Shown: positions 1,809 to 48,144, counted from the stretch's first letter. The stretch: 64,000 bases of DNA from Parcubacteria group bacterium (GCA_016181845.1 JACOYO010000002.1:20780-84779), one strand, 5' to 3'. The notes: generated from the sequence alone by a model not told the origin. Made by a program: numbers and translations.

Positions 1809-1887
1809 AGACGTCCGACCTCTGACGTAGTAATTATTTTATTTGTTGCCAATGCCGATGTTTTACCGATTCAGAGGTCGGACGTCT
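1809..1887 (-). repeat. family-A palindromic REP/MITE-like element, copy 1 (reverse orientation), followed by the GTTTCGTAGTTCAAAATAT motif
   Basis: AGACGTCCGACCTCTGA...TCAGAGGTCGGACGTCT arms around a conserved ~40-nt core that is the reverse complement of copies 2-5. Confidence 0.85.
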
Positions 1888-1924
1888 TAATGTTTCGTAG
1901 TTCAAAATATATTTACCAACCACA

Positions 1925-2158
1925 TCACACCAACGGGTCGTGTGTGTGTTTTTGCCACGGGTGACATCGCGCGACACGAATAATAGACAAAAAAATCCCT
2001 TTGATTACGCCGTATTTCATAATCGCTTCTTTTGCGTATTGAGAACAGGTCGGATAAAAAACACAAGTGTTTTGACGCGACGACAATACGCCGGTATCGG
2101 GAGAAAAAAATTTCTGATACTGATTAATGATGGCTAGAATGATTGTTTTTGTGTTCAT
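1925..2158 (-). CDS. yidD: membrane protein insertion efficiency factor YidD
   Basis: 77 aa; FYPTCSQYAKEAI...RCHPW signature; position after rnpA. Confidence 0.8.
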   Translation of the reverse strand: MNTKTIILAIINQYQKFFSPDTGVLSSRQNTCVFYPTCSQYAKEAIMKYGVIKGIFLSIIRVARCHPWQKHTHDPLV

Positions 2159-2162
2159 AGTG

Positions 2163-2504
2163 TTACGACCATGCTCCTATTTTTTTTAACAACGTCTCAA
2201 TTTCCGCATGAAAACCTGCCGGAGATAATTTTTCCGCGCCCTTTTTTAATAAAAACGCCGCCACAAAAGATGGTTTGATTGTTTTTTTATTCCTTTGCAA
2301 AAAAGCATAGCCGCGTCTTTTCAGTTTGTTTCTTTCTGTCGCTTTTGCGGCAACTTTTTTTGACACAACAAAAGCAAAGCGTGATGGAAACATTTCATCT
2401 TTTTTAGAAAACAAAACAGATAAAAGCGGCGATGAGACGCTTTTTTTTCGGCTTAAAATATTTTTGAAGAGCATCCGCGAAATTTTTTGTTTTTTTGCGA
2501 GCAT
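2163..2504 (-). CDS. rnpA: ribonuclease P protein component
   Basis: 113 aa, basic; ATERNKLKRRGYAFL motif; synteny rpmH-rnpA-yidD. Confidence 0.8.
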   Translation of the reverse strand: MLAKKQKISRMLFKNILSRKKSVSSPLLSVLFSKKDEMFPSRFAFVVSKKVAAKATERNKLKRRGYAFLQRNKKTIKPSFVAAFLLKKGAEKLSPAGFHAEIETLLKKIGAWS

Positions 2505-2535
2505 GCAAAGCGTATTTTTTGTTTTTTAAACAAAA

Positions 2536-2670
2536 TTACACCGAAAGCCGCGAGCGGCCCTTTCTTCGGCGGCGCCGTATAACATTTTTTCCTGTTTTAC
2601 TTCGCAAACGAACCAAAAAACCGTGTGTTTTGGCTCGTTTTCTTTTTTTTGGTTGATAAGTGATTGACAT
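2536..2670 (-). CDS. rpmH: 50S ribosomal protein L34 (absent from ORF track, below 60 aa)
   Basis: Manual minus-strand translation: [44 protein letters not shown], 44 aa, canonical L34; divergent from dnaA. Confidence 0.85.
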
Positions 2671-2828
2671 GGTGTTGAAAGTTGAAATTAGAAATCAAAA
2701 AGTATGGATAAAAATCGTTTTGTTTTTTTGCGCCCGCAATTGATGTTATACACATAGTATTAACATACTGTGCACTTTTTAACAAGTTTCTTATTTAACA
2801 ACATCATACTATAATCATCAGTAACCTG
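2671..2828. promoter_or_regulatory. rpmH-dnaA divergent promoter region with DnaA-box-like 9-mers (TTATCCATA, TTATACACA)
   Basis: Intergenic, AT-rich; 8/9 matches to TTATCCACA. Confidence 0.4.
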
Positions 2829-4193
2829 ATGTTACTACACTCATCTTTTATGGGAGACACAAAACAATTGTGGCACGACACATTAAATGAAATAGAGACA
2901 AGTGTGTCAAAAGCAAATTTTAGCACGTGGTTTAAGCATACCCACGTGCTAAAACAAGACGACGGGGTAGTGCACGTTGGTGTCCCGAACCCGTTTGTGA
3001 AGGATTGGCTTCAAAGCAAGTACCATAAGCTTATTTTGAAGTCGCTTCGTGGAATTTGCGATGGGGTTCGCGGTGTTGAATATGTTATCTCAAAAGACTC
3101 TGGTGTTGAAGAACCTGTGGTTATTTCTTTTCCTGAAAAAGAGTTTCTTAACGAGCGTTTCCCGATCGGAGATCTTTCGGTAAACAAAGAAGATAATTTG
3201 AACCCGCGATATACGTTTGATACGTTTGTAATCGGAGCTTTTAACGAGACGGCCTACGCCGCGTCTCAAACCATCATAAAAACACCAGGGTCTGCGTTTA
3301 ATCCGTTTTGTGTGTATGGACCAACAGGGCTTGGGAAGACACACCTTATACAATCAATCGGCAACTACTTAAAAAAAGAGGGTGCGCGTGTTTTCTACAC
3401 AACATCAGAAAAATTTTCTCTTGACTACATTACATCCGTTCAAAACAATAAAATAAATGTTTTTAAGGAAAAATATCGCTCGTACGACGTGTTTATAATG
3501 GATGACATTCAGTTTCTGTCAAACAAAGAACGCACGCAAGAAGAGCTTTTCCATCTTTTTAACGTTTTGTACGACAACAATAAACAAATTATTTTTTCAT
3601 CAGACAAGCACCACAACTATATTCCAGGGCTTGAAGACCGCTTGAAGTCGCGCTTTAACGCCGGAATGAACGCCGACATAAATCCGCCGGAATATGAATC
3701 AAAAATCGCAATTTTGCGTGCAAAACTAAATCAGCATAATTTTATTCCTCAAGAGTCGGTCCTTGAATATATCGCGTCTTCAACAACATCAAACATACGC
3801 GAATTAGAGGGGATATTAAACATTATTGCCTTTCAAACACAATTAAAAAAACACTCACTTTCCATAAACGAAGTTCGCGAAATCATAAAAAACAGCACTC
3901 GTCCAAAAAAAACAAAGACAATAGAAGAGGTAATAAGAATTACTGCCGGTTTTTACAACATTGAAGAAGAAATTATCTACAAAAAGACACGGAGGAGGGA
4001 GGTGGTGCGTCCGCGGCAAATTATTATGTATCTCCTCCGTGAGGATTTTAGCACTTCTTTTCCTCTTATCGGACAAAAACTCGGAGGGAGAGATCATACG
4101 ACCGTCATTCACGCGTATGAAAAGATAAAAGAAGACCTGAAAAAAGACAGCACTTTAAACCACGAGATAACACAGATACGGACCATGATATGA
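2829..4193 (+). CDS. dnaA: chromosomal replication initiator DnaA (alternative start at 2850)
   Basis: GPTGLGKTHL Walker A; C-terminal DNA-binding domain; followed by dnaN. Confidence 0.95.
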   Translation: MLLHSSFMGDTKQLWHDTLNEIETSVSKANFSTWFKHTHVLKQDDGVVHVGVPNPFVKDWLQSKYHKLILKSLRGICDGVRGVEYVISKDSGVEEPVVISFPEKEFLNERFPIGDLSVNKEDNLNPRYTFDTFVIGAFNETAYAASQTIIKTPGSAFNPFCVYGPTGLGKTHLIQSIGNYLKKEGARVFYTTSEKFSLDYITSVQNNKINVFKEKYRSYDVFIMDDIQFLSNKERTQEELFHLFNVLYDNNKQIIFSSDKHHNYIPGLEDRLKSRFNAGMNADINPPEYESKIAILRAKLNQHNFIPQESVLEYIASSTTSNIRELEGILNIIAFQTQLKKHSLSINEVREIIKNSTRPKKTKTIEEVIRITAGFYNIEEEIIYKKTRRREVVRPRQIIMYLLREDFSTSFPLIGQKLGGRDHTTVIHAYEKIKEDLKKDSTLNHEITQIRTMI

Positions 4194-4473
4194 TGAGGTT
4201 TTGTTGTTGATATGTTTGTTGAAAACGAGTTTATAAAAAAGTAATTCCTGTTGAAAAAAATGTGACAAAAAAATATTTTTCTGAAAAACCAAAATAAAAA
4301 ATTTCTTTTCCACAGGAAACGCTTTGGTTGAGAGTAAAAAACCTTTTCTTTTTCGGAATAATAAAAATTATCAACATATCAACAGACATCATATCAATAT
4401 ATAATAATTTCTAACTTATATTCATTTATTATTATTTATTCAAATCGGACAAAAAATATTTTTCAACGCAAAC
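4194..4473. promoter_or_regulatory. candidate oriC: DnaA-box cluster plus AT-rich unwinding tract between dnaA and dnaN
   Basis: TTTTCCACA near 4300; tandem TTATCAACA/ATATCAACA/ATATCAATA at 4363-4395; AT run TATATAATAATTTCTAACTTATATTCATTTATTATTATTTATT. Confidence 0.5.
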
Positions 4474-5574
4474 ATGAAAGCAGAAACAATAATTGAAAAA
4501 ATAAAAATAGCCGCAACGACCGCGGAGAAAATGACCGGAAAAAACCTTTCTTTACCGGCGTTAAAATCAATTCTTCTTATTGCAAAACAAAAATCGGTCA
4601 TTATAAAAGCAACCAATCTTGATATAGGGATTGAATACGAAATCCCAGCAAAAGTTGAAGAAGAGGGGGTTGCCGCCATACCAGGCGCTATTCTTGGCGG
4701 AATGCTTTCCGGATTATCCGGAGAAGAAATCGTTTCCATTGAATCGGTAAACAACAATGTCCTTTTTTCAACAAAAAAGAATTCAACAGTGTTAAAGACA
4801 ACCCCGTACGAAGACTTTCCTCTCATTCCTAAAATTTCCAACGGAGAAAAAATGATTATCTCGGCGGAAAAATTAATATCCGGATTGAGGTCGGTGTGGT
4901 ATAGCGCCGCGCTATCGGACATTAAACCGGAAATAGCGAGTGTATATTTGTATCAAAATGAAAAAAACATCGTTTTTGTTGCAACAGATTCTTTTCGTTT
5001 GGCTGAAAAAAAGATAGAAAACAAAAAAGACACAAACGCTGACGGGGTCATTGTTCCGCTTAAAAATGTTTCAGAAATAATAAGGGTTTTTGGAGAAAGA
5101 AGTGGTGATATTGAGATACTTTTCAACAAAAACCAAATTTCGTTTGAAAACAACGGCGTTTATGTTTTTTCAAGGACAATAGACGGTGTTTTTCCAGATT
5201 ACCAGCAGATTATTCCAAAAGAACACACGACCGAGGCGATTGTTTTGAAAAAAGATTTTCAAAACGCGCTAAAAATAGCAACAATTTTTTCTGAAAAATT
5301 TAATCAGGTTGTTTTTACCATTAAACCAAAAGATTCTTATTTTGAAATAAAATCAAAAAATAGCGCTATCGGCGAAAATACAACAACCATGGATGCATCA
5401 ATTTCAGGTGAAGACATTGTTATGGGTTTTAACGCAAAATATATTTCTGACAGCATGCAATCAATCGCCGAAGACAGCATTCTTCTGCAGTTTAACGGCC
5501 CAAACAAGCCACTGGTGATAAAAGGACTGTCAAACAAAAGTTTTCGTTATTTGGTAATGCCAATGAATCGTTGA
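4474..5574 (+). CDS. dnaN: DNA polymerase III beta sliding clamp
   Basis: 366 aa; position after dnaA; clamp-like three-domain pattern. Confidence 0.9.
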   Translation: MKAETIIEKIKIAATTAEKMTGKNLSLPALKSILLIAKQKSVIIKATNLDIGIEYEIPAKVEEEGVAAIPGAILGGMLSGLSGEEIVSIESVNNNVLFSTKKNSTVLKTTPYEDFPLIPKISNGEKMIISAEKLISGLRSVWYSAALSDIKPEIASVYLYQNEKNIVFVATDSFRLAEKKIENKKDTNADGVIVPLKNVSEIIRVFGERSGDIEILFNKNQISFENNGVYVFSRTIDGVFPDYQQIIPKEHTTEAIVLKKDFQNALKIATIFSEKFNQVVFTIKPKDSYFEIKSKNSAIGENTTTMDASISGEDIVMGFNAKYISDSMQSIAEDSILLQFNGPNKPLVIKGLSNKSFRYLVMPMNR

Positions 5575-5589
5575 TTTTTTAAGAAACAC

Positions 5590-5850
5590 ATGGCGCTTCC
5601 CATTATAGATTTTTTAAAAAAATTCAAAACGTTTGTTCCTCAAGAAAAAATAATGAGAGACGAACTCATTCGTGTTGTGAAAGAAGAAACCGGTATTTTA
5701 TTGTCAAAAGAAAATATTTCTTTTCACAACAACATGGTTTTTATCAATACGTCCCCGACAATAAAAAACGAATTGTTTATGCGAAAAAAACACCTCCTTT
5801 CAGAGATGAAAAAAAAGATGGGAGATACCGCGCCTCACGATATACGTTAA
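5590..5850 (+). CDS. DUF721/DciA-like small protein downstream of dnaN
   Basis: 86 aa; C-terminal VFINTSPTIKNELFMRKKHLLSEM resembles the DUF721 'VxVDSSxWxQELxF...L' pattern; conserved post-dnaN position. Confidence 0.4.
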   Translation: MALPIIDFLKKFKTFVPQEKIMRDELIRVVKEETGILLSKENISFHNNMVFINTSPTIKNELFMRKKHLLSEMKKKMGDTAPHDIR

Positions 5851-5856
5851 AAAACA

Positions 5857-8370: not shown

Positions 8371-8441
8371 ATAGCAGAAAATATACCACAAAACAAGGAG
8401 ATTACATAGCCGCCACACGTGAAACATGCTACGATACAAAC

Positions 8442-9632: not shown

Positions 9633-9663
9633 TTCTCTTTCCTGTCGGCAATGTTGCACAAAA

Positions 9664-14834: not shown

Positions 14835-14875
14835 TAGGTGCAGAAAATTATTGAGAAATTAACCCATATTACTAT

Positions 14876-14914
14876 GAATCACGAAACTCTTCTTCATCAT
14901 GAGTTTCGTAATTC
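14876..14914. repeat. family-C palindrome (GAATCACGAAACTC-TTCTTCATCAT-GAGTTTCGTAATTC) in the 5' UTR of the lipoprotein gene
   Basis: Imperfect 14-bp arms; same arms at 27445, 15549/15672 and 54661/54791. Confidence 0.7.
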
Positions 14915-14950
14915 AAGGCATATTACATAAACCGAAAGGATGGGGAAAAA

Positions 14951-15409: not shown

Positions 15410-15563
15410 ATTTTCGTAATTAACAGTAGATTTATACATACGGTCGTTCAAGGAAGAATAACCGTATGTATTTCTTTTCAAGTTTGGTATACCTTTGCGA
15501 TAAATGGATAGCGGATTTGAAAAGGAACATAAGGATAAAATTATCGTGAATTACGAAACGTAA

Positions 15564-15665
15564 AGACGTCCGACTTCTGAAGTGGTAAAACATAGGCATT
15601 CGCCACAAATAAAGTAATTACCACGTCAGAAGTCGGACGTCTTACACATCAGAGGTCGGACGTCT
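15564..15665 (+). repeat. family-A element copy 2 (full hairpin 15564-15642 plus an extra half-site 15646-15665), nested between family-C arms at 15549-15561 and 15672-15684
   Basis: Direct sequence comparison with copies 3-5. Confidence 0.85.
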
Positions 15666-15701
15666 CGTCGGCGTTTCGTAATTTACGAAAAACAAACAAT
15701 C

Positions 15702-17774
15702 ATGTTTAGTGTAATAACAAAAAAATATATCTATTATATCGCCTTGGTTGTAGCGATGATTTTTGTTGCCGTTCCTTTTGGAGCATTCGCCGCCACGGAA
15801 CCGTCGTCTCCAGATGTGAAATTGGTAACGGTGCAATTTTCCATTGACTCAAGTCGTCTTGTTTCTTCGGGATCGCAGATGACATCTGTAACCGGCAACA
15901 ACACAGAGACGATTCAAAACACAAACGGTTTGCATACCGCGCAAATCGAAATTCCAAAAGAAAGCAACCTTTTTAGCATTCATGTGAAATGGTCTTGGGA
16001 GGATAGCGGCAACACCGGCACCAATGACGTCATTGGCGTGTATGATATCGCGCAAAATCGTTTTACCAACTACATGGGAAACGGAGGCGGACCAAATGGA
16101 TATGTTGATTCGTTTAGAGCCGTATCCTATCCGAAAAGTATTCACACAGGAAAAGATGACGGCGGCTCGGGCGGCCCAGACCCGTATCAGGGAAACCTTT
16201 CTTCCCACTATTTTCATCTCACCGTATTAGATGTCAGCGTAACTCAATTTGCGACACCAGCACCGAGCGCTCCGCCTCAAACACAATCACCGTCGCAAGC
16301 GCCGCCATCTTCAAGCGCGTCAAGCGCCCAGACATCAAACCCCGCAATCATCGCATTGCTGGTCACCGACCCTGTTTCAAACATCACAGAGACAAAAGCG
16401 CTTCTCAACGGCCACCTGACGGTTACGGGAGATACGCCTGTTGAAATGTGGTTTGAGTGGGGTGTGGGAGTATTTGACCACACAACTTCTATTCGCACGA
16501 TACAAAACAGCGGACGAAGCGTGAGCGAATCAATATATGGTCTTGCTCCAAACACGCAATACATAGCGCGGTTGGCGGCACGGACACCTTCCGCCACAGT
16601 GTATGGAGACGCGGTTTTATTTGTTACCCAACCCACTCCTTCAAATCGTGCGTCGGTGAGCACTTATACGCCGCAAAATATTGACGGAGACGGAGCTCTC
16701 ATGCGCGGGTATGTGAATCCGCGCGGGAGTACTGATACCGTTGCCTGGTTTGAATGGGGAAAAACAATTCCGTTTACCAACACCACCCCTTCCATGACGC
16801 TTGGCGGTGATTCCGGAACGGTGAGTTTTCCGCTCAATTCGCTTGAGGAAAACACACGGTACTACTACCGGATTGTCGCCGTCAATTCTGCCGGAATGTC
16901 TTACGGAAGTACTGTTGATTTCAAAACAGGAGCGGTAAAAGAGTCGGTTTCGCGCGGGGCTCCTTCAGTGACCACCATTAACGCGGAACAAGAAGGAGGC
17001 GGATATATTGTCGTGTTGAAAGGATACGTAGATACAAAAAATGTTCAAACGCGTACATGGTTTGAATACGGAAAAACAACCTCTCTCGGGAGAACGACCT
17101 CAAGAAGCGACCCGCGGAAAGAATCTGGTAGTTTCAGCGAAACGCTCTCCGGACTTGAACAAGGTGTCGTGCATTACTACCGCGCGGTTGCGTCAAACGA
17201 CAATGGCGTTGCATACGGAAATGTATTGAGTGTCACCCCCGGCGGAAACACACAAGTATCTGCAGTATTTACTGCGGCAGATACAATATACGCGGTCACT
17301 GACAGAGCGGAATCAGTCAATGAACAAAGCGCTTTGGTGCGCGGCAGTATTTTATCCGCGGACAACCGCGCGGTTTCGCAAGGATGGTTTGAATACGGAG
17401 AGACGGAAGCGCTTGGCAGAGAGACGCCGATAAAAAATGTGGGTCTGGTAAGCGTGGCCGGCGTGTCGGAGAGTTTGTTTAACCTTGCTCCTGAAACAAC
17501 ATACTATTACCGTTTTGTTGCCAAGCAAAAGGAAGTTGTTTCGCGCGGGGCGATACAAACATTTACCACAAGCGTTCCGGAGAGATTGATTGTTTCTCGC
17601 GCGGCGCCGCAGACGGCACAGCCGCCAAAGATATCTAATGGCGGTAGCGGGCTTGCCGCCGCGGTTTTTCTCGGCGACTTCGCGGCGTTTATGCCGGTGA
17701 CTTTCATTGAATGGTTTCTAGTGTTTCTACTCGTGTTAAGTTTTGTCGTTGCGTGGAGGCAAAAATATATATAA
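15702..17774 (+). CDS. cell-surface protein: signal peptide, P/S/A-rich linker, four ~100-aa Fn3-like tandem repeats, C-terminal TM anchor
   Basis: Repeats each carry WFE[WY]G...Y[YI].R..A.N..G motifs; hydrophobic N- and C-termini. Confidence 0.7.
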   Translation: MFSVITKKYIYYIALVVAMIFVAVPFGAFAATEPSSPDVKLVTVQFSIDSSRLVSSGSQMTSVTGNNTETIQNTNGLHTAQIEIPKESNLFSIHVKWSWEDSGNTGTNDVIGVYDIAQNRFTNYMGNGGGPNGYVDSFRAVSYPKSIHTGKDDGGSGGPDPYQGNLSSHYFHLTVLDVSVTQFATPAPSAPPQTQSPSQAPPSSSASSAQTSNPAIIALLVTDPVSNITETKALLNGHLTVTGDTPVEMWFEWGVGVFDHTTSIRTIQNSGRSVSESIYGLAPNTQYIARLAARTPSATVYGDAVLFVTQPTPSNRASVSTYTPQNIDGDGALMRGYVNPRGSTDTVAWFEWGKTIPFTNTTPSMTLGGDSGTVSFPLNSLEENTRYYYRIVAVNSAGMSYGSTVDFKTGAVKESVSRGAPSVTTINAEQEGGGYIVVLKGYVDTKNVQTRTWFEYGKTTSLGRTTSRSDPRKESGSFSETLSGLEQGVVHYYRAVASNDNGVAYGNVLSVTPGGNTQVSAVFTAADTIYAVTDRAESVNEQSALVRGSILSADNRAVSQGWFEYGETEALGRETPIKNVGLVSVAGVSESLFNLAPETTYYYRFVAKQKEVVSRGAIQTFTTSVPERLIVSRAAPQTAQPPKISNGGSGLAAAVFLGDFAAFMPVTFIEWFLVFLLVLSFVVAWRQKYI
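16344..17600 (+). repeat. intragenic tandem protein repeats (4 x ~100 aa, Fn3-like) within the surface protein
   Basis: Repeated WFEWG/WFEYG...YYYR...G..YG blocks in the translation. Confidence 0.6.
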
Positions 17775-17976
17775 CAAAGAAACAAAGAGCAGCCCTTTGT
17801 TGGGGGATAACTTTTTGGGGACTTAGTTCCCAAGAATATATAGAAAGATGTCTTACAAAAGATGGCGCTTTCTTTCGATATATCGAAAGGAACGAAGTAT
17901 GGTTAGCCCTTTGTAGATGGTATGCCAGTATACTGGCATAGTCTTTGTCACTTAGTGGCTCAACTACTAAGTTGAT

Positions 17977-18078
17977 AGACGTCCGACCTCTGCCGTGGTA
18001 AAACATCGGCATTGGCCACAAATAAAGTAATTACCACATCAGAGGTCGGACGTCCCACACAGCAGAAGTCGGACGTCT
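17977..18078 (+). repeat. family-A element copy 3 (17977-18054) plus half-site (18063-18078), then GTTTCGCAATTCAAAGTAT motif
   Basis: Direct comparison. Confidence 0.85.
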
Positions 18079-18155
18079 TCGCGTTTCGCAATTCAAAGTA
18101 TAACAATAAAAAAACCGCCCCTTACGGCCGGTTTTTTGTTGCGTCGCGACTCATT

Positions 18156-26965: not shown

Positions 26966-27472
26966 ATGCCAAACGGTAAAAATGAAATTGTCTTGATTTT
27001 GCACGACATACGCAGTGTGGAAAACGTCGGCTCTATTTTTCGCACGGCCGATGCCGCGGGCGTGTCAAAAATATATCTTGCGGGGTATACACCAGCGCCG
27101 CTTGACCGATTCGGTCGCAAGCGGCGCGACATGGCAAAAGTTTCGCTTGGCGCGGAAGAAACTGTTTTGTGGGAACAGTCGGCGGATATTTTTTCTCTCA
27201 TAAAACATCTTAAAGAAGAAGGATACGCAGTCGTCGCGGTTGAGCAAGACGCTCGCGCTGTTTCATGCGGCAAAATTTCTCAACAAGAAAAAATTGTCTT
27301 TGTGTTTGGGAACGAGGTGGGTGGGCTGCCGCAAGATGTATTAAAACAATGCAATATTGTTGCAGAAATCCCGATGTTTGGCAAAAAAGAATCGCTCAAT
27401 GTCGCTATCGCGGCGGGGATTATGCTTTTTCTGTACAAAGACCGTGAATTACGAAACTCTTCTTCGTCATGA
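26966..27472 (+). CDS. TrmH/SpoU-family RNA 2'-O-methyltransferase
   Basis: ILHDIRSVENVGSIFRTADAAG and C-terminal SPOUT-like motifs. Confidence 0.7.
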   Translation: MPNGKNEIVLILHDIRSVENVGSIFRTADAAGVSKIYLAGYTPAPLDRFGRKRRDMAKVSLGAEETVLWEQSADIFSLIKHLKEEGYAVVAVEQDARAVSCGKISQQEKIVFVFGNEVGGLPQDVLKQCNIVAEIPMFGKKESLNVAIAAGIMLFLYKDRELRNSSSS

Positions 27473-27478
27473 GTTTTT
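27445..27478. repeat. family-C palindrome (GAATTACGAAACTC-TTCTTCGTCAT-GAGTTTTT) overlapping the trmH-family stop codon
   Basis: Direct comparison with 14876-14914. Confidence 0.6.
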
Positions 27479-27596
27479 GATAGATGCGCATAATCCTGCT
27501 TGCGAGCAAAATTTGCTATGCTCCCCCGACGATACTGTCGGGGTCCGCAATGTCTCTCAAAAACTATGATTTCAGAGAGTTTTGTAATTTAAGGTT

Positions 27597-30930: not shown

Positions 30931-31167
30931 TAAAAATAATGAGCGCAAAGCGTTTGCTTTGCGCGAATGTATTTTTATAGCCATCAAGAAGAATCGAAAG
31001 GCGGAGGCCGCGAAGCCGAATCCGAAGCGTAGCGCAGGATTCGTGGCCGAGCCGGGGTCGCGAGCCCAAAAATTAAGGAGTGAAACGACTATAATTTTTG
31101 AGGACTTGTGACCGATTCTTCTCGAGGGCATAAAAATAATGAGCGCAAAGCGTTTGCTTTGCGCGAA
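30914..31167 (+). repeat. 200-bp periodic unit: 54-bp direct repeat (tRNA-Arg 3' end + 37-nt trailer) at 30914-30967 and 31114-31167, enclosing a 76-bp GC-rich module (30991-31066) shared with the tRNA-Gly locus
   Basis: Direct sequence comparison; the two 54-mers are identical. Confidence 0.85.
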
Positions 31168-31202
31168 CGCATGTTAGAAACCGATTTGTGGTTTCTTAAA
31201 AC

Positions 31203-33868: not shown

Positions 33869-34075
33869 CGGAATCGGAAGCCGAAATGGGGTCGCGCCGT
33901 AGGCGCGACCCCATTTCGGCTTCCGATACACACCGCAGTCGGGATTTTGCAAGAAAGAAAGTTTAACATCGGCATGCGGAGCGCGGCGAGCCCAGCCAGA
34001 GTTCTTCAGCATTCGGCTATGCGATAGCCGAATACACAGCATTCGGCTATGCGATAGCCGAATGTTGGACAGATT
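33869..34075. repeat. structured intergenic block: 24-bp perfect palindrome (CGGAAGCCGAAATGGGGTCGCGCC-GTAG-GGCGCGACCCCATTTCGGCTTCCG) plus two tandem 27-nt hairpin repeats (CATTCGGCTATGCGATAGCCGAAT)
   Basis: Read directly. Confidence 0.7.
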
Positions 34076-34255: not shown

Positions 34256-34999
34256 ATGGGAAAATCTCATATCCTCCGGCTTGTCGTTTTTGGTGCAGTG
34301 TTCGCTATTGCTGTCGCCGGCTGTGTTTCACTATCGCATACACGGTCGGGAGAAAAAGATTTTTGGAGGAAGACGCTTGAAAAGAAAATACCGGCAACAG
34401 CGGTTTTGGACACCGATGCATCATGGAATAAGTTTGAGCGCTCTATGAATACGTGGCTGACGGGCAAGATAGGAGTGCTTCGCGAACGCACGGCAAGAAA
34501 AATGTTTGGAAAGCCGACAGAGCGCCGGGTCACGGAGTCGGCGCGGTCAGCAGGGTGGTATTATCGTGAAGGAAAATTGTTTGATTGGGACATGCTTGTG
34601 GCTAGCGGAAATCATCGGAACGAAAAAGACTACATGCTCGTCCTGGGATTTACTCCGAAAGGAGCGCTCGCAACCTTTGAGCTCGCTTCTTCGCGAAATC
34701 CTTCCACGACCATCGGTGGGACGACGAAGTATCTCGTGCGGGGCGCGGTGACGGTCGGTGGTACGATACTGTTTTCACAGTTAATGGAGAAAGCGCTTAA
34801 TCGCGCGAGCGACTACCTTGCCAAAAAATTGGAAGGGCTGGGACCGGAGCTTGAACAAAGAATTCAAAACGGCATCAAAGGAGGACTTCCCGCAGAATTG
34901 AATCTCAAGAGCACGAAGATTCAAGGGACATTATCAAGCGGAGAATCTATTAATCTAACCATCCCCAAAACGGGGTTGGAGATTCCAAAAGTTCCTTAA
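34256..34999 (+). CDS. lipoprotein, hypothetical
   Basis: Signal peptide with AVAGC lipobox. Confidence 0.55.
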   Translation: MGKSHILRLVVFGAVFAIAVAGCVSLSHTRSGEKDFWRKTLEKKIPATAVLDTDASWNKFERSMNTWLTGKIGVLRERTARKMFGKPTERRVTESARSAGWYYREGKLFDWDMLVASGNHRNEKDYMLVLGFTPKGALATFELASSRNPSTTIGGTTKYLVRGAVTVGGTILFSQLMEKALNRASDYLAKKLEGLGPELEQRIQNGIKGGLPAELNLKSTKIQGTLSSGESINLTIPKTGLEIPKVP

Positions 35000-35424: not shown

Positions 35425-35799
35425 ATGAAATACTTGGGCATTGATTATGGAACCAAACGCGTCGGCGTAGCTCTTTCCGATGACGGCGGGACGATGGCTT
35501 TTCCGTATGGCGTTATTCAAAATACTCCAGCGCTTTTTGGCGAGCTGAAAACGATTATCAAAAAACATGAGATTTCGTGTATTGTCGTCGGAGAGTCGCT
35601 TGATTATTCAGGCAAACCAAATCCGGTCATGGAAGAAATAAAAACATTTGTTCGTGAATTGGAAGCAAAAATTGGTATCGCGGTTCAGTATGAGCCGGAA
35701 TTTTTGACCTCCGCGCAAGCGCGCCGCATTCAAGGCGATTCGCACACGCTTGATGCCTCCGCCGCGGCGATTATTTTGCAAAGTTTTTTGGATAAATAG
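35425..35799 (+). CDS. ruvX: putative pre-16S rRNA nuclease / Holliday junction resolvase-like RuvX (YqgF)
   Basis: MKYLGIDYGTKRVGVALSD N-terminus. Confidence 0.8.
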   Translation: MKYLGIDYGTKRVGVALSDDGGTMAFPYGVIQNTPALFGELKTIIKKHEISCIVVGESLDYSGKPNPVMEEIKTFVRELEAKIGIAVQYEPEFLTSAQARRIQGDSHTLDASAAAIILQSFLDK

Positions 35800-35876
35800 A
35801 CGTCCGACCTCTGAATTGGAAACATATCGGCATTGGCCGTAAATAAAGTAATTACCACATCAGAGGTCGGACGTCT
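35798..35876 (+). repeat. family-A element copy 4, between convergent ruvX and the LysM-M23 gene
   Basis: Direct comparison. Confidence 0.85.
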
Positions 35877-40167: not shown

Positions 40168-40173
40168 ATTAGC

Positions 40174-40201
40174 AGAAGTCGGATATCGGATGTCCGACTT
40201 T
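40174..40201 (+). repeat. family-A half-site hairpin (AGAAGTCGGATATCGGATGTCCGACTT), followed at 40245 by the shared TCGCAATTCAAAGTAT motif
   Basis: Matches the extra half-sites of copies 2 and 3. Confidence 0.6.
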
Positions 40202-40574
40202 AGCGGGTGAACAAAAAGGCGATGTTAAACCCCCGGCTTTTTTGTATCTCGCAATTCAAAGTATCCCAGTATATTATACTGGGAATAGTAGTTTCATACG
40301 ATATATAGTATGAAAATTAAAATTAAATAATTTGTAACCAATTTTTCGCTATAGCGAAAGTTGTGTGATGGGTACATTTTTCATATTTTTATACCGAAAA
40401 ATATACCAGTGGTAAAATTGTAAAAATTATTTCGGCTGAGTTGAGGGCGAAATTATAATAACCAATTCTTATTTCGCCAGTTGCGAAGACGAAACACAGG
40501 TTCAATACCCATGAGGTTTGCTCCAAGGAACATCTATTTTTTCAAGTTTTTTCTTTTATGCTATCATCAGCAAA

Positions 40575-42533: not shown

Positions 42534-42608
42534 CCACGCGCAGAAATGGCGCCGCATAAAAAAACCGACCGCGGAGACGGTCGGCAGTGCGTGCCAAGAA
42601 ATGTTTGG

Positions 42609-42749
42609 TTACTCGGTTTCTTCATTGGCTTCTTTTTTTATTTCTCCGAACATCTTTGCCGCCGTTTCCGCGTCTATCTTTTCTTGAGCGCTTTCCGGCG
42701 AAAGCATGTCGGCTGTTTTCTCTTTCTCTTTTACTTTTATTTTTTGCAT
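42609..42749 (-). CDS. 46-aa small protein (not in ORF track) with GGAGG SD and downstream terminator
   Basis: Manual translation MQKIKVKEKEKTADMLSPESAQEKIDAETAAKMFGEIKKEANEETE; SD GGAGGAAAAATG; terminator CCGACCGTCTCCGCGGTCGGTTTTTTT at 42555-42585. Confidence 0.4.
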   Translation of the reverse strand: MQKIKVKEKEKTADMLSPESAQEKIDAETAAKMFGEIKKEANEETE

Positions 42750-42811
42750 TTTTCCTCCAATTTATACAAGCGGCGTTTTTTTAGAGTAGCATTATAAGAC
42801 GCCCATGTCAA

Positions 42812-43366: not shown

Positions 43367-43455
43367 AGACTGCGTTATAAGGTAGTGTGGCTGGACTTTT
43401 TTATTCTGTGTGATATATTATAAAAAACTCAAAACCCCAAAGGAGGGAATGTACC

Positions 43456-43938
43456 GTGAAAACAAAAAAAGAGAGTATGATCGCCGTGGCTTTTTGCAGT
43501 TTGTTAATCTTATTTTGGTTTTTGGCGCCAAACGCAGTTGCGTTGGTGCATACGCCCATGATGCACGACGCGCATGGACACTCTAACCATTTGTCGCCCC
43601 AAAAATCGCCGCCAAAATCGGATGTCGTTCCTGCCCAGGGCGATATGTTTGACGCGGCGAAGGCGCTTGCGGATTTGGACAAAAAGTATCTAGCCGCCCA
43701 AAACGAAGAAGAGAAAGATTTATTGAGACAAAAAATCGCCCGCACCGCTCTAGTGAGCGGGAGGAGCGGAAAAATTTTGTCTCAAAAAGACGGGCGAGTC
43801 GTGAATGGGCGCGTTGGCCATGCGGATGACCCGAATTATTGGATTATCAACGCAAGGTCAGACGGACATCAAGTCACTTGCGCAATTATTTCTCGTGACG
43901 GGAGAGAAAAATCTGAATTTTCTTTTTTTCTTCATTAA
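43456..43938 (+). CDS. secreted His-rich hypothetical protein (GTG start, SD AAGGAGGG)
   Basis: Signal peptide; HTPMMHDAHGHSNH. Confidence 0.5.
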   Translation: MKTKKESMIAVAFCSLLILFWFLAPNAVALVHTPMMHDAHGHSNHLSPQKSPPKSDVVPAQGDMFDAAKALADLDKKYLAAQNEEEKDLLRQKIARTALVSGRSGKILSQKDGRVVNGRVGHADDPNYWIINARSDGHQVTCAIISRDGREKSEFSFFLH

Positions 43939-44004
43939 GAGTCCGGGAGCCAGTCTGAACATACAGAGTCAAAGAGCGCCGCTTCTAGCGCGCGCTCTTT
44001 TTTA

Positions 44005-44868
44005 TTGTATGATAGTCGTATGAAGCCGAAGAAATCATTAGGACAACATTTTCTGAACTCGCCGGAGACGGTGCGAAAAATTATTGAAATCGCGGAACTT
44101 TCGCTGGACGATATCGTGCTTGAAGTGGGACCCGGCAGAGGAGGGCTGACCAAAGCGCTCTTGGAGCGCGCCGGAAAAGTTATTGCTGTGGAAAAAGACC
44201 GTGAACTAAAACCATTTCTTGAAAATCTGTTTCAGGAAGAAATAAAAAAAGGAACGCTCGAGCTTGTGTTCGGCGATATATTGCAATTTACAAAGGAGGA
44301 ACCTTTGTACAAAGGTTCCTCCTTTGTAAATTGTGGGAAAAACTATAAGATTGTGGCGAATATCCCGTATTATATTACCGGCGAATTGCTCCGGCTTTTT
44401 TTGTCCGGAGATTTTCAGCCGAAAAGTATGACCCTTCTTGTGCAAAAAGAAGTCGCGGAGCGTATTGTGGCGCGTGATGGCAAAGAAAGCATTCTCTCAA
44501 TAAGTGTTAAAGCGTATGGTGTGCCGACATATATTCAAACGGTATCGGCGCGCGATTTTTTGCCGCCCCCCAAAGTAGATTCGGCGATTTTGCACATTGA
44601 TGCGATTTCTAAAGATTTTTTTACTTTGCCGACTTGGAAACCCGACGTCCAAGTTGAAGAGGAATTTTTCAAATTGGTAAAAACCGGCTTTGCTCATAAG
44701 CGAAAATTGCTTATCGGTAACTTAAAAAACCCTTATAAATACAAAGGTTCCTCCTTTGTAGTACAAGCGTTAGAAAAATGCTCAATTCCTCAAAACGCTC
44801 GCGCGGAAAATGTCTCGCTTGATGGGTGGAAATGTCTTTTACGGAGAATTATGACTCAGGAATTATGA
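44005..44868 (+). CDS. rsmA: 16S rRNA (adenine1518/1519-N6)-dimethyltransferase RsmA/KsgA, with two in-frame palindromic insertions
   Basis: SLGQHFL, VLEVGPGRGGLT SAM motif, NIPYYIT; YKGSSFV encoded twice by a palindrome. Confidence 0.85.
   Translation: MYDSRMKPKKSLGQHFLNSPETVRKIIEIAELSLDDIVLEVGPGRGGLTKALLERAGKVIAVEKDRELKPFLENLFQEEIKKGTLELVFGDILQFTKEEPLYKGSSFVNCGKNYKIVANIPYYITGELLRLFLSGDFQPKSMTLLVQKEVAERIVARDGKESILSISVKAYGVPTYIQTVSARDFLPPPKVDSAILHIDAISKDFFTLPTWKPDVQVEEEFFKLVKTGFAHKRKLLIGNLKNPYKYKGSSFVVQALEKCSIPQNARAENVSLDGWKCLLRRIMTQEL
44289..44328. repeat. family-D 40-bp palindrome TACAAAGGAGGAACCTTTGTACAAAGGTTCCTCCTTTGTA, in-frame inside ksgA; further copies at 44750-44770 (in-frame) and 44942-44970
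   Basis: Read directly. Confidence 0.8.
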
Positions 44869-45068
44869 ATATAAAAAAGCGCAAAAACCAAAAGAAATTC
44901 ACTTGGAAGCGAAGCTTCCAAGTAAGAGTAAGATAGAAGAGAAATTTTTTGATTCTACAAAGGGTAGCCCTTTGTAGAATTCAATAGATATACACACATT
45001 TGGTACTTTGCCTTTTTGTAACGTGATATACTGTAAGGGTAGAATTAGGAGGATTCTAACTTTTTACT

Positions 45069-46055
45069 TTGAACTATTTTCCCAGCAAAAAGATTTTAAT
45101 GTTATTAGCGGTCCTGGCGCTTGGCGGCGGATTGTGGGGGTTTATGTCGTCTCGCACCGAATCAAACAAACTGCCCGGAACACTCGTATTTACCAATAGC
45201 GGCGCCGCGCAAGCACCACTCCGTGGCATCACGCAAAAAGACAGCGATACCGACGGTCTTTTTGATTGGGAGGAGATGCTTTGGAAGACAGACCCCAACA
45301 ATCCCGATACTGACGGTGACGGTACAAACGACGGCGACGAAATTAAACTAAAACGAAATCCTTTGAAGCCAGGGCCAGACGATGCTTTGCCGGACGATTT
45401 TTTACATCAACAAACTCAAACAAACGAGCCGGACGAGAAATTGACGCAAACCCAGCTTCTTACGCGCGATTTTATCAGCACCTATCTCAAACTCAAACAA
45501 ACGGACCAATTTACGCCTGAAAATCAGGAGAAGCTCGTTAGTAGTTTTATGGAAGAAGCGCTCTCGCGCGCTCAAACAACAGAAAACCCCGCGCGTTCTT
45601 TAGAGGAACTCACGATTGAAGATGAGGCCGGTATCATTCCGATAAGCCAATATGCGCAAGCATTGGAATCTGCTTTAGGAAAAAATTTCTCTTACTCATT
45701 TTTTGGGCAGGAGCTTATACTGCTCAAAAATATTTTGGAGAAAAAAGATTCGCGCACGATAGCCGTATTTGGTGAAGCGGAAAAAGCATACCGAAATCTT
45801 GCGGACGAACTGCTCAAGACGCGCGTGCCGCGTGAGATAGCAGTGTCTCATATCGCGCTTATCAACAGCGCGCTCGTGATTGCAAAAAGTTTTTCCGACA
45901 TAATGCTCCTCCCGACAGACCCGCTCCAGGCACTTACCGGCGTGAAAAGATATGATGAAGAATTGGTCAATTTTGGAAAATATTTGAGCGATATTTCATC
46001 TTACATTCTGCGGGTGACAAACGAAGCAGAAAATAAACTAAAAACTAAAAACTAA
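45069..46055 (+). CDS. secreted protein with thrombospondin type-3-like Ca-binding repeats
   Basis: Signal peptide; DSDTDGLFDWEE...DPNNPDTDGDGTNDGDE. Confidence 0.6.
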   Translation: MNYFPSKKILMLLAVLALGGGLWGFMSSRTESNKLPGTLVFTNSGAAQAPLRGITQKDSDTDGLFDWEEMLWKTDPNNPDTDGDGTNDGDEIKLKRNPLKPGPDDALPDDFLHQQTQTNEPDEKLTQTQLLTRDFISTYLKLKQTDQFTPENQEKLVSSFMEEALSRAQTTENPARSLEELTIEDEAGIIPISQYAQALESALGKNFSYSFFGQELILLKNILEKKDSRTIAVFGEAEKAYRNLADELLKTRVPREIAVSHIALINSALVIAKSFSDIMLLPTDPLQALTGVKRYDEELVNFGKYLSDISSYILRVTNEAENKLKTKN

Positions 46056-46124
46056 AAATGAAAAACAACAATGCAAAACTAAAAACTTTAAATTTTAAGT
46101 TGTTGTTTTTCATTTTTCGTTTTT
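46049..46124. repeat. family-B AT-rich inverted-repeat hairpin (AAAAATGAAAAACAACAA ... TTGTTGTTTTTCATTTTT), cargo-less copy
   Basis: Arms related to those flanking 50760..51065. Confidence 0.6.
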
Positions 46125-46137
46125 AAGTTTACATTTT

Positions 46138-48063
46138 ATGTTTTCTTACCTTCAGAAAAAAATCATTGCGGCAATGCTTGTGGTGGCGATTATATCTCCA
46201 GCGGTGCTTTTAATACAGCCGAAAAAAGCGGAAGCGGCGTGCGGATTTGGTGGCGGAGGGGGTGGAGGCACGCCCGAAACAAATCCAAATATACAGGGAC
46301 CAGTAGACACAAGCGGCATGATTCAGGCTATGCGTCAAATCAAGCCCCGACTTGCTATTCAACGACTTATCGAAGACACACCCCTTGCGGTGAGCGTGTC
46401 AACTAATATTTTTAAATCAGGAGGAGCGTCAACTATTTCCATTCCTCAAACCAGTTTTGACGCAAACGCGCTTGATGGCGGCGCTACATTGGCTCTTGTG
46501 GTAAGCGAACCTGTTTTGCAAGCTATTAATATTGCGCAGAAAGCAATAGAGTGCATTACCTCCATCGCGAGTTCAATAACATCATTTGCGACCGATTCGC
46601 TGGCAATAAAAGAAACCGTGCTTGACGGCATCGCGTACGCAATCATCAATCAAATCATTGCCGATATGTTAAATGATATTCAGCGTTGGGCGATTACCGG
46701 CTTCAAAGGAAACCCTGTATTTTTAACCAACCCTGAACGGTACTTCACCAATTTAGCGGACCAAGTGCTTGGCGTATTTTTAAATAAGCTTGCCGGCGTC
46801 AACTTGTGCAATATCAGATGGAACGCGCTGATTGAAATTTCTCTTAGCATTGATTTGGGATACCAACAGCGTGCGCAATGCACTTTTTCTGAAATAGGCG
46901 CGAATTTTGACCGGTTTATAAATGATTTTTCCCAAGGCGGATGGGGCGCATGGATTAAACTCACCACCGAAACGCAAAATAATCCCTATGGCGCTTATAT
47001 TCTCGCGACAGAAGAACTTGCAAAGCAAACCGGCACGGTCCCGGGCGGACTTCTCGGCAAAAAACTGCTTGAGCTTCAATGGGGCAAGGGCATCATATCT
47101 CTGACGAAGTGTACATACGGAGAAATTTCTCAAAATGATGTGGATTCTGGGTATATCAATGAAAATCTTCCGGCGCTTGATAAATCAACTATTGGAATGT
47201 GTAAAGACGCGCGGGGTAATCCTGACCCCAACGCTACCTCTAACACCACGCCCGGAAATATCATTGAAGATTCCATAAACAAAACACTTGGAGCAACGAC
47301 CGATCGTATTGTGGCGGCTGATGAAATCAACGAGACCATGGCGGCTCTTTTATACGGACTTTTGGTCAAGACATTTTCTTCAAATGAAGGTTTTGCCGGC
47401 GCCGACTGGAGCGGCATATCGTCGCAGATTGGCAGTGGGGCGAGCAATAAAGCGTTTGCCGACGTAAAAAGCGAGATTTTCGCGCGCGTGGATTCGTTTA
47501 CCATAAGCGAGACAGAATTCAAGAAACAAAAAGAACGAGCGCTCGGCGTTTTGAAAGAAAGCGAAAAAGCGTTGAATGAAGTCGCCGCGTGCTACATAGA
47601 CCAAATTACACTCTACAAACAATACCTTGACCCCGCGAATACCCGCCTGCTTTCTATCGGCTCCGGCAATCCATTTTTGCAGTTTGTGCAGGCGGAAGCC
47701 GAACAAAAAATACAGCAGAGCCGCGATACGCTTGCGCAAAAAATAACTCCGCGCGTGGCGCCGCTCCAAAATAGCGTCACGCAATCAAACGTATTTCTTT
47801 ATGAAATAGAGCAGACGCGCGCGACGATTGTTTCAGCAGATACATTTAACAAACTGGATGAAAAGACCAAGATATTTTTTGAGACGCGCGACCGATGGGA
47901 CGACCCGCTTGAAGCGGCGGCGGCGGAAAATGAAGCGGACTCCATCAAAACCGAGATTGAACCGATTACCGCGCAGGCAAAAGCAGATTTGCCGCCATGT
48001 CAAACAACTCGCCAGCAGATGCGCGACTTTTTCAAGATAAACGACATACAGCCCGCGGCGTGA
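46138..48063 (+). CDS. large secreted hypothetical protein (signal/TM, poly-Gly CGFGGGGGGG), first gene of the T4SS-like block
   Basis: ORF track; composition. Confidence 0.5.
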   Translation: MFSYLQKKIIAAMLVVAIISPAVLLIQPKKAEAACGFGGGGGGGTPETNPNIQGPVDTSGMIQAMRQIKPRLAIQRLIEDTPLAVSVSTNIFKSGGASTISIPQTSFDANALDGGATLALVVSEPVLQAINIAQKAIECITSIASSITSFATDSLAIKETVLDGIAYAIINQIIADMLNDIQRWAITGFKGNPVFLTNPERYFTNLADQVLGVFLNKLAGVNLCNIRWNALIEISLSIDLGYQQRAQCTFSEIGANFDRFINDFSQGGWGAWIKLTTETQNNPYGAYILATEELAKQTGTVPGGLLGKKLLELQWGKGIISLTKCTYGEISQNDVDSGYINENLPALDKSTIGMCKDARGNPDPNATSNTTPGNIIEDSINKTLGATTDRIVAADEINETMAALLYGLLVKTFSSNEGFAGADWSGISSQIGSGASNKAFADVKSEIFARVDSFTISETEFKKQKERALGVLKESEKALNEVAACYIDQITLYKQYLDPANTRLLSIGSGNPFLQFVQAEAEQKIQQSRDTLAQKITPRVAPLQNSVTQSNVFLYEIEQTRATIVSADTFNKLDEKTKIFFETRDRWDDPLEAAAAENEADSIKTEIEPITAQAKADLPPCQTTRQQMRDFFKINDIQPAA

Positions 48064-48065
48064 TT

Positions 48066-48144
48066 AGACGTCCGACCTCTGAATTGGTAAAAAATCGGCA
48101 TTAGCCGCAAATAAAGTAATTACCACATCAGAGGTCGAACGTCT
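48066..48144 (+). repeat. family-A element copy 5, immediately upstream of the VirB6-like gene
   Basis: Direct comparison. Confidence 0.85.

Follow-up and report, generated by a model that had tools for sequence, protein, structure and literature searches.

Five palindromes of 79 nt lie between the genes of the stretch of DNA analysed here (the window; 64 kb from a groundwater Parcubacteria MAG close to Candidatus Lloydbacteria), and their repetition raises the question of what kind of sequence they are. A first-pass annotation had offered a mobile miniature element or a structured RNA and had considered a terminator role plausible. We addressed this question through the architecture of the repeat, its gene contexts, its occurrence in related genomes and its resemblance to known systems.

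Architecture and gene contexts of the repeat

Using one arm, AGACGTCCGACCTCTGA, with up to three mismatches as a query, 12 matches were found in the 64-kb window against 0.07 expected, and these correspond to five inverted pairs and two extra arms. The complete unit (Family A; copies c1 to c5 in Table 1) has a length of 79 nt and consists of 17-bp terminal inverted repeats, AGACGTCCGACCTCTGA and TCAGAGGTCGGACGTCT, with an asymmetric 45-nt core between them. The five copies of the window and one copy of a relative can be aligned without gaps (mean column identity, 92%). When a covariance model was run on the whole window with filters off, exactly five copies were recovered at 97-107 bits, and the next-ranked matches were unrelated hairpins at 29 bits or less. 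The opposite strand of the copies scored only about 50 bits, so the element has a defined orientation. The five full copies annotated before were thus confirmed, with the end of c3 at 18055 and not at 18054, as was the inverted orientation of the first copy, whose core is inverted. Seven independent copies are known (five in the window and two in relatives); they diverge by 7-15%, and all seven are intergenic. Their arms are perfectly complementary in c1, c2 and c4 and carry one or two mismatches in the remaining copies. Each copy folds into a 17-bp stem, an inner 6-7-bp stem and a small GGC/GCC hairpin, with a folding energy of -37 to -41 kcal/mol (z = -7.5 to -9). Only one of the six frames is open (26 codons), and its peptide has no database homologue; Family A is multi-copy and non-coding, and its density in the window is five copies per 64 kb, or about one per 13 kb.

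Table 1 Coordinates of Family A, Family B and associated features in the window.
Feature	Position	Strand	Description
c1, Family A	1809..1887	-	79 nt; covariance model 97.4 bits, minus strand
Solo Family B arm	1892..1910	+	GTTTCGTAGTTCAAAATAT; 4 nt from c1 arm
B1, Family B	14873..14918	.	46-nt hairpin, arms TGAATCACGAAAC / GTTTCGTAATTCA
c2 composite	15543..15689	+	Family B arms around c2 plus second right arm R2
Family B arms enclosing c2	15545-15559 and 15673-15687		
c2, Family A within composite	15564-15642	+	
R2, second right arm of c2	15649-15665		
c3, Family A	17977..18055	+	
R2 of c3 and Family B arm	18062..18101	+	R2 18062-18078, then GTTTCGCAATTCAAAGTAT 18083-18101
B3, Family B	27443..27593	.	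About 100 nt extra internal sequence
c4, Family A	35798..35876	+	
Hairpin, arms partly Family A-like	40174..40201	.	CAGAAGTCGGA / TCCGACTT, right-then-left order
Solo Family B arm variant	40246..40264	+	ATCTCGCAATTCAAAGTAT
c5, Family A	48066..48144	+	
B4, Family B	54662..54803	.	23-bp arms, G+C-rich 113-nt interior

The copies were annotated as lying at the 3' ends of genes, which is partly right. On the minus strand, c1 lies 37 nt past the stop of a small ORF at 1925-2158, itself downstream of rnpA; a trypsin-like protease gene begins 47 nt further on, with its ATG at 1761. The composite that contains c2 folds at -69 kcal/mol, with about 13 nt between it and the ATG that follows at 15702, and c3 is found about 200 nt beyond the stop of a 690-aa PhoD_N/fn3-like gene and upstream of a conserved bidirectional terminator (~18108-18140). 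The stop codon of RuvX, a TAG, is completed by the first two bases of c4, and RuvX is 3 aa shorter here than its counterparts in relatives; c5 begins 2 nt past the TGA stop of a 641-aa gene and ends 19 nt ahead of the ATG of a 624-aa gene. When the two copies of relatives are counted, however, a start codon lies 16-59 nt downstream in five of the seven copies, two of which are between divergent genes.

Extra downstream half-sites had been noticed at c2 and c3, and both are present as second right arms (R2), each located 6 nt ((T/C)ACACA) past the first right arm. A lone half-site had also been placed at 40174-40201. This hairpin is real, with a 12-bp stem that starts 7 nt past the stop of a DUF5663 gene, but each arm matches Family A at only about 11-12 of 16 positions, and its arms occur in the opposite order. 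The R2 arms and this inside-out hairpin are unaccounted for by the mobile-element reading developed below.

The motif that follows c1, c3 and the 40174 hairpin was indeed found (1892-1910, 18083-18101 and, with 2 mismatches, 40246-40264; the last has an exact 16-mer in common with the arm beside c3), but its assignment to the element was a misreading. Because further occurrences of the motif form inverted pairs that enclose no Family A (14873/14903, 27443/27579 and 54662/54789), it represents a separate repeat family, and we rejected it as a part of Family A: it is the arm of Family B, a 46-nt mini-MITE with its own target duplication. B1 lies between the two copies of a perfect direct repeat of 8 bp, CATATTAC (14865-14872 and 14919-14926), and is absent from the orthologous 5' leader of four relatives, which together indicate that this genome hosts active miniature elements. 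The flanks of B4 (TATTGTA / TATGGTA) are identical at 6 of 7 positions, the left arm of B3 supplies the last codons and the stop of an ORF (26966-27472) judged SpoU/TrmH-like by eye from its translation, and the relative L092 has a half-B element at the place orthologous to 18062..18101. Family A is nested inside, or abuts, Family B.

Filled and empty sites in related genomes

Copies of Family A also exist outside the window, at non-orthologous sites. One, in Candidatus Lloydbacteria JACROH010000005.1 (2362-2440; L040), is 88-93% identical, is flanked by an 8-bp inverted repeat and is the only DNA that this locus shares with the window. The other, in the Logan assemblies SRR22216445 and SRR22216449 (L088 and L089; 3888-3972), scores 78.5 bits and in L088 is about 82% identical over 79 nt, with matching changes in both arms. 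Both are located between divergent genes, and the downstream gene is an uncharacterised 349-aa ORF in L040 and RuvX in L088. Between these genomes, the intergenic DNA that surrounds the sites cannot be aligned by eye, and conservation of the whole 79 nt in such surroundings implies selection or exchange at the level of the family. As far as searchable data show, Family A appears to be confined to a narrow Lloydbacteria-like clade of Parcubacteria (CPR).

The window was compared with five relative lineages, at a genus-like distance at which the comparison is not base-exact; housekeeping proteins of the syntenic loci are mostly 74-96% identical to those of the window. Syntenic relatives have no copy at four of the five window sites (c2-c5). 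Specifically, L092, L093, L095 and L101 lack Family A at the c2 and c3 sites, the whole c2 composite being an insertion relative to four syntenic relatives; the c4 site is occupied in L086, L088 and L089 by a canonical bidirectional terminator; and the c5 junction measures 100 bp in the window and 20 bp in L087, a difference of 80 bp that is about the 79 nt of the element. Reciprocally, the DUF5652/RuvX site is filled in L088 and empty in the window and in L086. Related genomes differ in which intergenic sites hold Family A, through insertions or losses that took place independently. The argument for insertion is one of reciprocity and parsimony only, because the relatives are too diverged for the base-exact empty-site alignments that would distinguish insertion from loss in all others. 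In addition, contigs of the same strain from three independent Logan assemblies break off within Family A and a fourth contig begins within it, as a dispersed repeat would lead one to expect. The non-orthologous copies, the reciprocal filled and empty sites and the assembly breaks all support the mobile miniature element that was among the original suggestions.

Selected hairpin, binding site or mobile element

The stable fold (z about -8) could also mean that Family A is a selected cis-acting RNA hairpin, such as a U-tract-independent terminator, a 3' mRNA stabiliser or a processing site, and that its mobility is secondary. c4 and c5 abut stop codons, and c4 stands in for the canonical bidirectional terminator of three relatives' loci; it is, however, the only copy in the place of an ancestral terminator. 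c2 and c3 adjoin canonical terminators that relatives keep, so they would be redundant there, c2 and c5 split junctions that are tight in relatives, directly before start codons, and the L040 and L088 copies, between divergent genes, have no 3' end to terminate. The core is in the sense orientation in all three informative tandem contexts (c1, c2 and c5), but three of three falls short of significance, and orientation cannot be read from convergent or divergent contexts. The stem is followed by a T-run in none of the seven copies on either strand, and a terminator scan did not call the copies. These observations argue against the terminator role. Using Rfam 15, only four tRNAs in the window reached the gathering threshold, and Family A gave, at an E-value of 1 or less, only a chance miRNA-hairpin match (25.9 bits against a threshold of 52).

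Compensatory changes in the stem bear on the same reading. Three covarying pairs were found, two in the arms and one in the small inner hairpin; pair 15-71 changes from C-G to U-A in c2 and L088, and pair 7-79 from C-G to A-U in L088. Both arms change together across subfamilies, and the GAAG arm variant, also carried by R2 of c3 and by the hairpin at 40174, suggests that such subfamilies exist. The arm pairs are, however, explained equally well by inverted repeats recognised by a transposase, and the pair next to the double change of the inner hairpin is broken in the same sequence. As for a structured RNA, the evidence from the three covarying pairs is weak and no Rfam family matches, and we consider a selected RNA hairpin quite unlikely.

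It is highly improbable that the arms form a palindromic protein-binding site (an operator, or a nucleoid or segregation site) placed before secreted-protein genes. The position shortly upstream of start codons in five of the seven copies would fit, and three downstream genes look secreted or extracellular (the trypsin-like protease, the PhoD_N/fn3-like protein and the 624-aa protein, which has a hydrophobic N-terminus). However, no gene lies downstream of c3 or c4 in either sense, the site is absent at the orthologous genes of relatives, and the 45-nt spacing with a conserved asymmetric core is atypical for an operator. Since RuvX (L088) and the 349-aa ORF (L040) are also among the downstream genes, no coherent regulon emerges.

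We therefore favour, with a probability of roughly two in three, the reading of Family A as a non-autonomous, MITE-like palindromic mobile DNA element. It has the terminal inverted repeats, small size, lack of coding capacity, multiple dispersed copies and insertion polymorphism of a MITE, but not the fixed-length target-site duplication, of which B1 provides a perfect 8-bp example. No consistent target-site duplication was detected at Family A, with boundary offsets ranging from -3 to +3; old duplications could have decayed. Since the copies differ by 7-15%, there is no evidence of very recent movement. Neither a transposase nor a RAYT or integrase gene was found in the 64-kb window, and a putative transposase encoded elsewhere would move the element in trans by recognising its arms or the DNA hairpin that they form. 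Copies would survive only where genes stay intact, typically right past a stop codon or some tens of bases ahead of a start. Through co-transcription, the very stable RNA hairpin may have incidental effects on mRNA 3' ends or stability, and at c4 the role of a lost terminator may have passed to it; such RNA effects would be by-products and not the cause of the repetition.

A variant that we regard as unlikely dispenses with a classical DDE transposase and has Family A moved without target duplication by a hairpin- or ssDNA-directed mechanism, homing to palindromes and being co-opted as a U-tract-less transcript end. The targets would be Family B arms, terminator hairpins and the inverted repeat around the L040 copy, and co-option would have occurred as at c4, where a canonical terminator is replaced. 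If this is true, the miniature elements of the window, nested in one another (A inside B) and joined by a tRNA-end-linked module, would make up a small ecosystem in a lineage where mobile elements are understood to be few.

Repeats and mobile DNA are regarded as scarce in the small genomes of CPR/Patescibacteria, and no account of a REP- or MITE-like element in these genomes turned up in our full-text literature searches. Family A, nested with Family B, indicates that miniature mobile DNA can thrive in streamlined CPR genomes. It remodels gene junctions by supplying stop codons, displacing a terminator and splitting operon-like junctions. Short-read assemblies of the organism are visibly fragmented by it, which is a practical issue of MAG quality for this clade, and it could serve as a marker in strain typing.

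Comparison with known systems

Like intrinsic terminators, Family A places a stable stem-loop past the stop codon at c4 and c5, but it has no U-tract and its loop is a structured 45 nt, whereas the canonical terminators of this genome consist of an A-tract, a GC stem and a T-tract (e.g. ~18108-18140). The insertion of IS1397 and ISKpn1 into REP loops resembles the position of Family A inside the Family B hairpin at c2, although here the inserting unit is a non-coding mini-element and not an IS. Family A lies 4-7 nt from Family B arms at four junctions (c1, c2 twice and c3), which suggests a preference for other repeats as targets; since four of the seven copies have no Family B arm nearby, this preference is unproven. 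Rickettsia palindromic elements (RPEs) are likewise palindromic mini-elements spread in a reduced genome, and a similar contribution of codons is seen where c4 gives the RuvX stop and B3 a C-terminus and stop. RPEs typically lie in-frame inside genes and measure about 100-150 bp, whereas all seven Family A copies are intergenic.

REP/REPIN elements, mobilised by RAYT (an HUH Y1 transposase), share several features with Family A: both are hairpin-forming extragenic palindromes with co-evolving halves and no detected target duplication, which action on single-stranded DNA hairpins would explain. Family A is also within the size range of REPINs, and some copies are located at another palindrome or inside it (the Family B hairpin at c2 and the flanking repeat in L040). 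However, its single arms are not REP-like imperfect palindromes that fold on themselves behind a 5' GTAG-type tetranucleotide, since AGACGTCCGACCTCTGA is self-complementary only over the 6-nt GACGTC and has no GTAG head. The long, conserved and asymmetric core is unlike a REPIN spacer, few copies are known, and no Y1_Tnp/RAYT-like gene is present in the 64-kb window. We hold an origin as a RAYT-mobilised element to be very unlikely.

Close parallels to the mobile element proposed here are also the Correia elements (CREE/NEMIS) of Neisseria and bacterial MITEs such as ERIC/IRU, RUP and Nezha. As in Family A, these are small, non-coding sequences with terminal inverted repeats, are dispersed in intergenic DNA near gene starts and ends, are co-transcribed as a long hairpin, and are present or absent at orthologous sites of related genomes. 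Correia-type elements are larger (~100-160 nt with 26-bp repeats, compared with 79 nt and 17-bp repeats) and have no sequence similarity to Family A, whose host is a CPR bacterium and in which no TA or other target duplication was detected and no IHF-like site or promoter-forming end was seen on sequence inspection. A new mechanistic question would arise only if the mobilising enzyme proves unusual, and most likely Family A is a new family of a familiar kind rather than a new type of RNA gene or terminator.

Family A copies in the window

When the window was searched for the 17-nt Family A arm (AGACGTCCGACYTCTG, with its reverse complement at the other end) at up to three mismatches, 12 matches were found against 0.07 expected, comprising five inverted pairs and two extra arms. 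The five 79-nt copies (c1-c5) are located where the first-pass annotation had placed them, and the additional downstream half-sites it had reported at c2 and c3 were also recovered, as a second right arm (R2) lying 6 nt, (T/C)ACACA, 3' of the first. Copies c1-c5 and one relative's copy form a gap-free alignment with a mean column identity of 92%. A covariance model built from Family A copies, with which the whole window was scanned with filters off, returned exactly these five copies at 97-107 bits, and all other matches scored 29 bits or less and were unrelated hairpins. The opposite strand of the copies scored about 50 bits, and from this gap it follows that the asymmetric core gives Family A an orientation. 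Each copy folds into a 17-bp outer stem, a 6-7-bp inner stem and a small GGC/GCC hairpin, with energies of -37 to -41 kcal/mol and z of about -7.5 to -9. The lone half-site hairpin proposed earlier does exist, but its arms resemble those of Family A only partly and stand in the order right then left, which rules out an internally deleted Family A copy.

The 26-aa open frame of Family A (doubled to reach the 40-aa minimum) matched none of 5.8 billion proteins, a promoter/terminator scan with inspection gave no convincing outward -35/-10 signal, and no transposase, RAYT or integrase was found within the 64-kb window. No consistent direct repeat flanks the copies; TAA/TTA flanks two of seven at one offset, which does not reach significance across the 49 offsets examined. 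The element is in sense orientation in all three informative (tandem-gene) contexts (p about 0.125, not significant), and with so few contexts we do not claim an orientation bias.

Features of the window and the corresponding sites in relatives (L-numbers denote loci from relatives)
Feature	Position	Window	Relatives
Family A c1	1809-1887	core inverted; arm and covariance-model matches	
Family A c2	15564-15642	arm and covariance-model matches; in composite 15543-15689, ATG ~13 nt downstream, terminator hairpin upstream	without composite in L092, L093, L095, L101
Family A c3	17977-18055	arm and covariance-model matches; with ~200 nt of other palindromes	without these in L092, L093, L095, L101
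Family A c4	35798-35876	arm and covariance-model matches; between convergent ruvX and M23 peptidase genes	textbook bidirectional terminator
Family A c5	48066-48144	arm and covariance-model matches; junction 100 bp	orthologous genes 20 bp apart in L087
DUF5652/ruvX site		empty	filled in L088, empty in L086
Half-site hairpin	40174-40201		
Family B B1	14873-14918	46 nt, encloses 15-nt loop	
Family B pair	15543-15689	encloses Family A c2	
Family B B3	27443-27593	encloses ~100 nt	
Family B B4	54662-54803	encloses G+C-rich 113 nt	
Terminator hairpin after 152-aa gene	15431-15474	GTACATACGGTCGTTCACGGACGAATGACCGTATGTAC + TTCTTTTC	kept in all five lineages
Bidirectional terminator adjoining c3	~18108-18140		conserved in L092, L093, L095, L101
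tRNA-linked modules	30932-31175; 60619-60862	after tRNA-Arg(GCG) and tRNA-Gly(TCC), respectively	missing after identical tRNA-Arg in L086
Expanded intergenic regions	17775-17976; 40168-40517	ATGCCAGTATACTGGCAT, CCCAGTATATTATACTGGG, TTTCGATATATCGAAA, AACAAAG..CTTTGTT, TTTCGCTATAGCGAAA	~200-335 nt shorter
Palindrome TACAAAGGTTCCTCCTTTGTA	44289-44976	four copies	
CCCTTTGT motifs, related to TACAAAGGTTCCTCCTTTGTA	17793; 17900		
Tandem 27-nt unit CAGCATTCGGCTATGCGATAGCCGAAT	34007-34063	perfect duplication, 30-nt period; between tRNA-Ser and gene at 34256	
Strong unrelated hairpins	33872-33928; 50590-50640; 51584-51674; 58616-58667		
Internal repeats of 690-aa protein gene	16745-17425	~312-327 nt	
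AT-rich repeats	46039-46145; 50658-51106	~13-14-nt period; TAAAAATGAAAAAC-like on one strand, GTTTTTCATTTTT on the other	

Filled and empty sites in related genomes

The window contains rnpA, dnaA and dnaN, and therefore lies near the replication origin; ruvABC, ruvX, polA, a PilB-type ATPase and a type IV secretion-like cluster are also present (several of the names from rnpA onward are our own reading of translations), and one protein of the window is identical to HYT28_00975 (Parcubacteria group bacterium), with nearest homologues labelled Candidatus Lloydbacteria. Gene order is kept in five relative lineages, whose housekeeping proteins mostly share 74-96% identity with those of the window. 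Comparison of insertion sites with these relatives, as suggested in the first-pass annotation, revealed presence/absence differences at the c2-c5 and DUF5652/ruvX sites. At the c4 site, L086, L088 and L089 have a terminator (A-tract, GC stem, T-tract) within a 41-75-bp spacer; the first two bases of c4 complete the TAG stop of ruvX, and RuvX is 3 aa shorter. The c5 junction differs from that of L087 by 80 bp, close to the 79 nt of the element, and the terminator hairpin upstream of the c2 composite is common to the window and the four relatives without the composite. Sites are filled in one lineage and empty in another, and vice versa, which is the hallmark of a mobile element and unlike the pattern of a vertically inherited regulatory site; of the two readings first offered, mobile miniature element or structured RNA, it supports the former. 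In addition, c4 contains the ends of three Logan assemblies from the window's own strain and the start of another contig, as expected of a dispersed repeat in short-read assembly. A composite transposon c2-gene-c3 was ruled out, because four relatives have the enclosed 690-aa gene at the syntenic position but not the elements.

Beyond the window, the strict two-arm pattern gave no match in the genome collection, and a looser arm pattern gave 79 loci, with L040 as the only true copy among those inspected; the few others inspected were all unrelated, mostly high-GC hairpins. A metagenome scan with the arm pattern returned one match, a chance hairpin, and IMG/VR, a phage collection and a plasmid collection contained no Family A match. 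The L040 copy (Candidatus Lloydbacteria JACROH010000005.1, 2362-2440) is the only DNA that locus has in common with the window, and it lies between divergent genes with an ATG 16 nt downstream. By scanning loci fetched via homologous proteins, a second, more diverged copy (78.5 bits; arms AGAAGTCCGACTTCTG / CAGAAGTCGGACTTCT) was found in L088 and L089 (Logan assemblies SRR22216445 and SRR22216449), between the DUF5652 gene and ruvX, whose ATG is 52 nt downstream. Over the whole 79 nt, the L088 copy is ~82% and the L040 copy 88-93% identical to those of the window, while the intergenic DNA around Family A sites is not alignable by eye between these genomes; this similarity implies that Family A is under selection as a unit or exchanged between genomes.

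Family B and other repeats

The motif GTTTCGYAATTY, taken at first as a conserved adjacent part of the element, belongs instead to Family B, in which it occurs as inverted pairs around differing contents (arms TGAATTACGAAAC / GTTTCGTAATTCA; variable cargo) and has its own duplication. Copy B1 lies in the 5' leader that follows a conserved TTGACA-17-TAKAAT promoter, between the two halves of a perfect 8-bp direct repeat, CATATTAC. In four relatives this leader lacks the element and has the target-like sequence only once, which shows that Family B is insertional, a miniature element (mini-MITE) with an 8-bp target duplication. Copy B3 supplies the last codons and stop of a SpoU/TrmH-like ORF. 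In L092, a half-B (loop and arm) directly follows the stop of the 690-aa gene orthologue, so the B arm beside c3 is older than the neighbouring Family A insertion. At four junctions (c1, c3 and either flank of c2), Family A and Family B arms are separated by 4-7 nt, which hints at target preference or co-mobilisation; four of seven Family A copies have no Family B arm nearby.

Other repeats were also observed. The two tRNA-linked modules are homologous (77.5% identical over 249 nt), with repeats at a 200-nt period. Each comprises a terminator-like hairpin, an inverted copy of its own tRNA's 3' end (15/17 and 14/17 matches), a G+C-rich, structured interior, and a direct tRNA 3'-end copy with hairpin, 95-97% identical to the first. 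The ends are locus-specific and match the local tRNA, the fold reaches -89 kcal/mol (z = -7.7), and no Rfam match was found; the module looks like a third small insertional element, targeting or copying tRNA 3' ends. The palindromes filling the two expanded intergenic regions suggest further palindromic repeat families in the genome. Two copies of TACAAAGGTTCCTCCTTTGTA lie inside an rsmA/ksgA-like ORF (44005-44868), encoding ..YKGSSFV.. twice, and one lies just downstream. The hairpin after the 152-aa gene shows apparently compensatory stem changes with a conserved loop, a conservation unusually strong for a terminator. Orthologues of the 690-aa PhoD_N/fn3-like protein have 516-526 aa, ~170 aa fewer, and the internal repeats of the 690-aa protein suggest a recent domain duplication. 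The AT-rich repeats flank a block of genes for large secreted proteins and a 23S_rRNA_IVP-family gene (50760-51065).

Covariation, termination and classification

In the seven-sequence alignment, three pairs carry changes on both sides (7-79, C-G to A-U; 15-71, C-G to U-A, in c2 and L088; 35-44, G-C to A-U), and the covariation score is higher than in any of 500 shuffles or any slid control. The two arm pairs would equally be produced by a transposase recognising both ends, the GAAG arm variant recurs in R2 of c3 and in the half-site hairpin, pointing to subfamilies rather than independent compensations, and in the sequence with the sole inner-hairpin covariation the adjoining pair is broken. 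The double changes therefore argue only weakly for an RNA structure. Differential constraint between arms and core was dropped, since the variable columns (~9/34 and ~19/45, our count from the alignment) do not differ significantly.

A terminator role, at first considered plausible, was not supported: no T-run follows the copies on either strand, the terminator scan calls none of them, c2 and c3 adjoin canonical, conserved terminators and would be redundant, c2 and c5 are inserted directly before start codons, and the L040 and L088 copies are in promoter regions between divergent genes. Only c4 occupies a former terminator position, where, from its location, it may have taken over the lost function.

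In conclusion, Family A most likely represents a new family within a familiar class, that of non-autonomous, palindromic mobile elements of the MITE/REP-like type, and it shows every testable MITE property except target duplication. It differs from REP/REPIN elements, which are GTAG-headed self-folding units, from intrinsic terminators, which have a U-tract, and from the families of Rfam, none of which it matches at the gathering threshold or at E-values up to 1. Family A is of note mainly for its streamlined CPR host and its nesting with a second mini-element.
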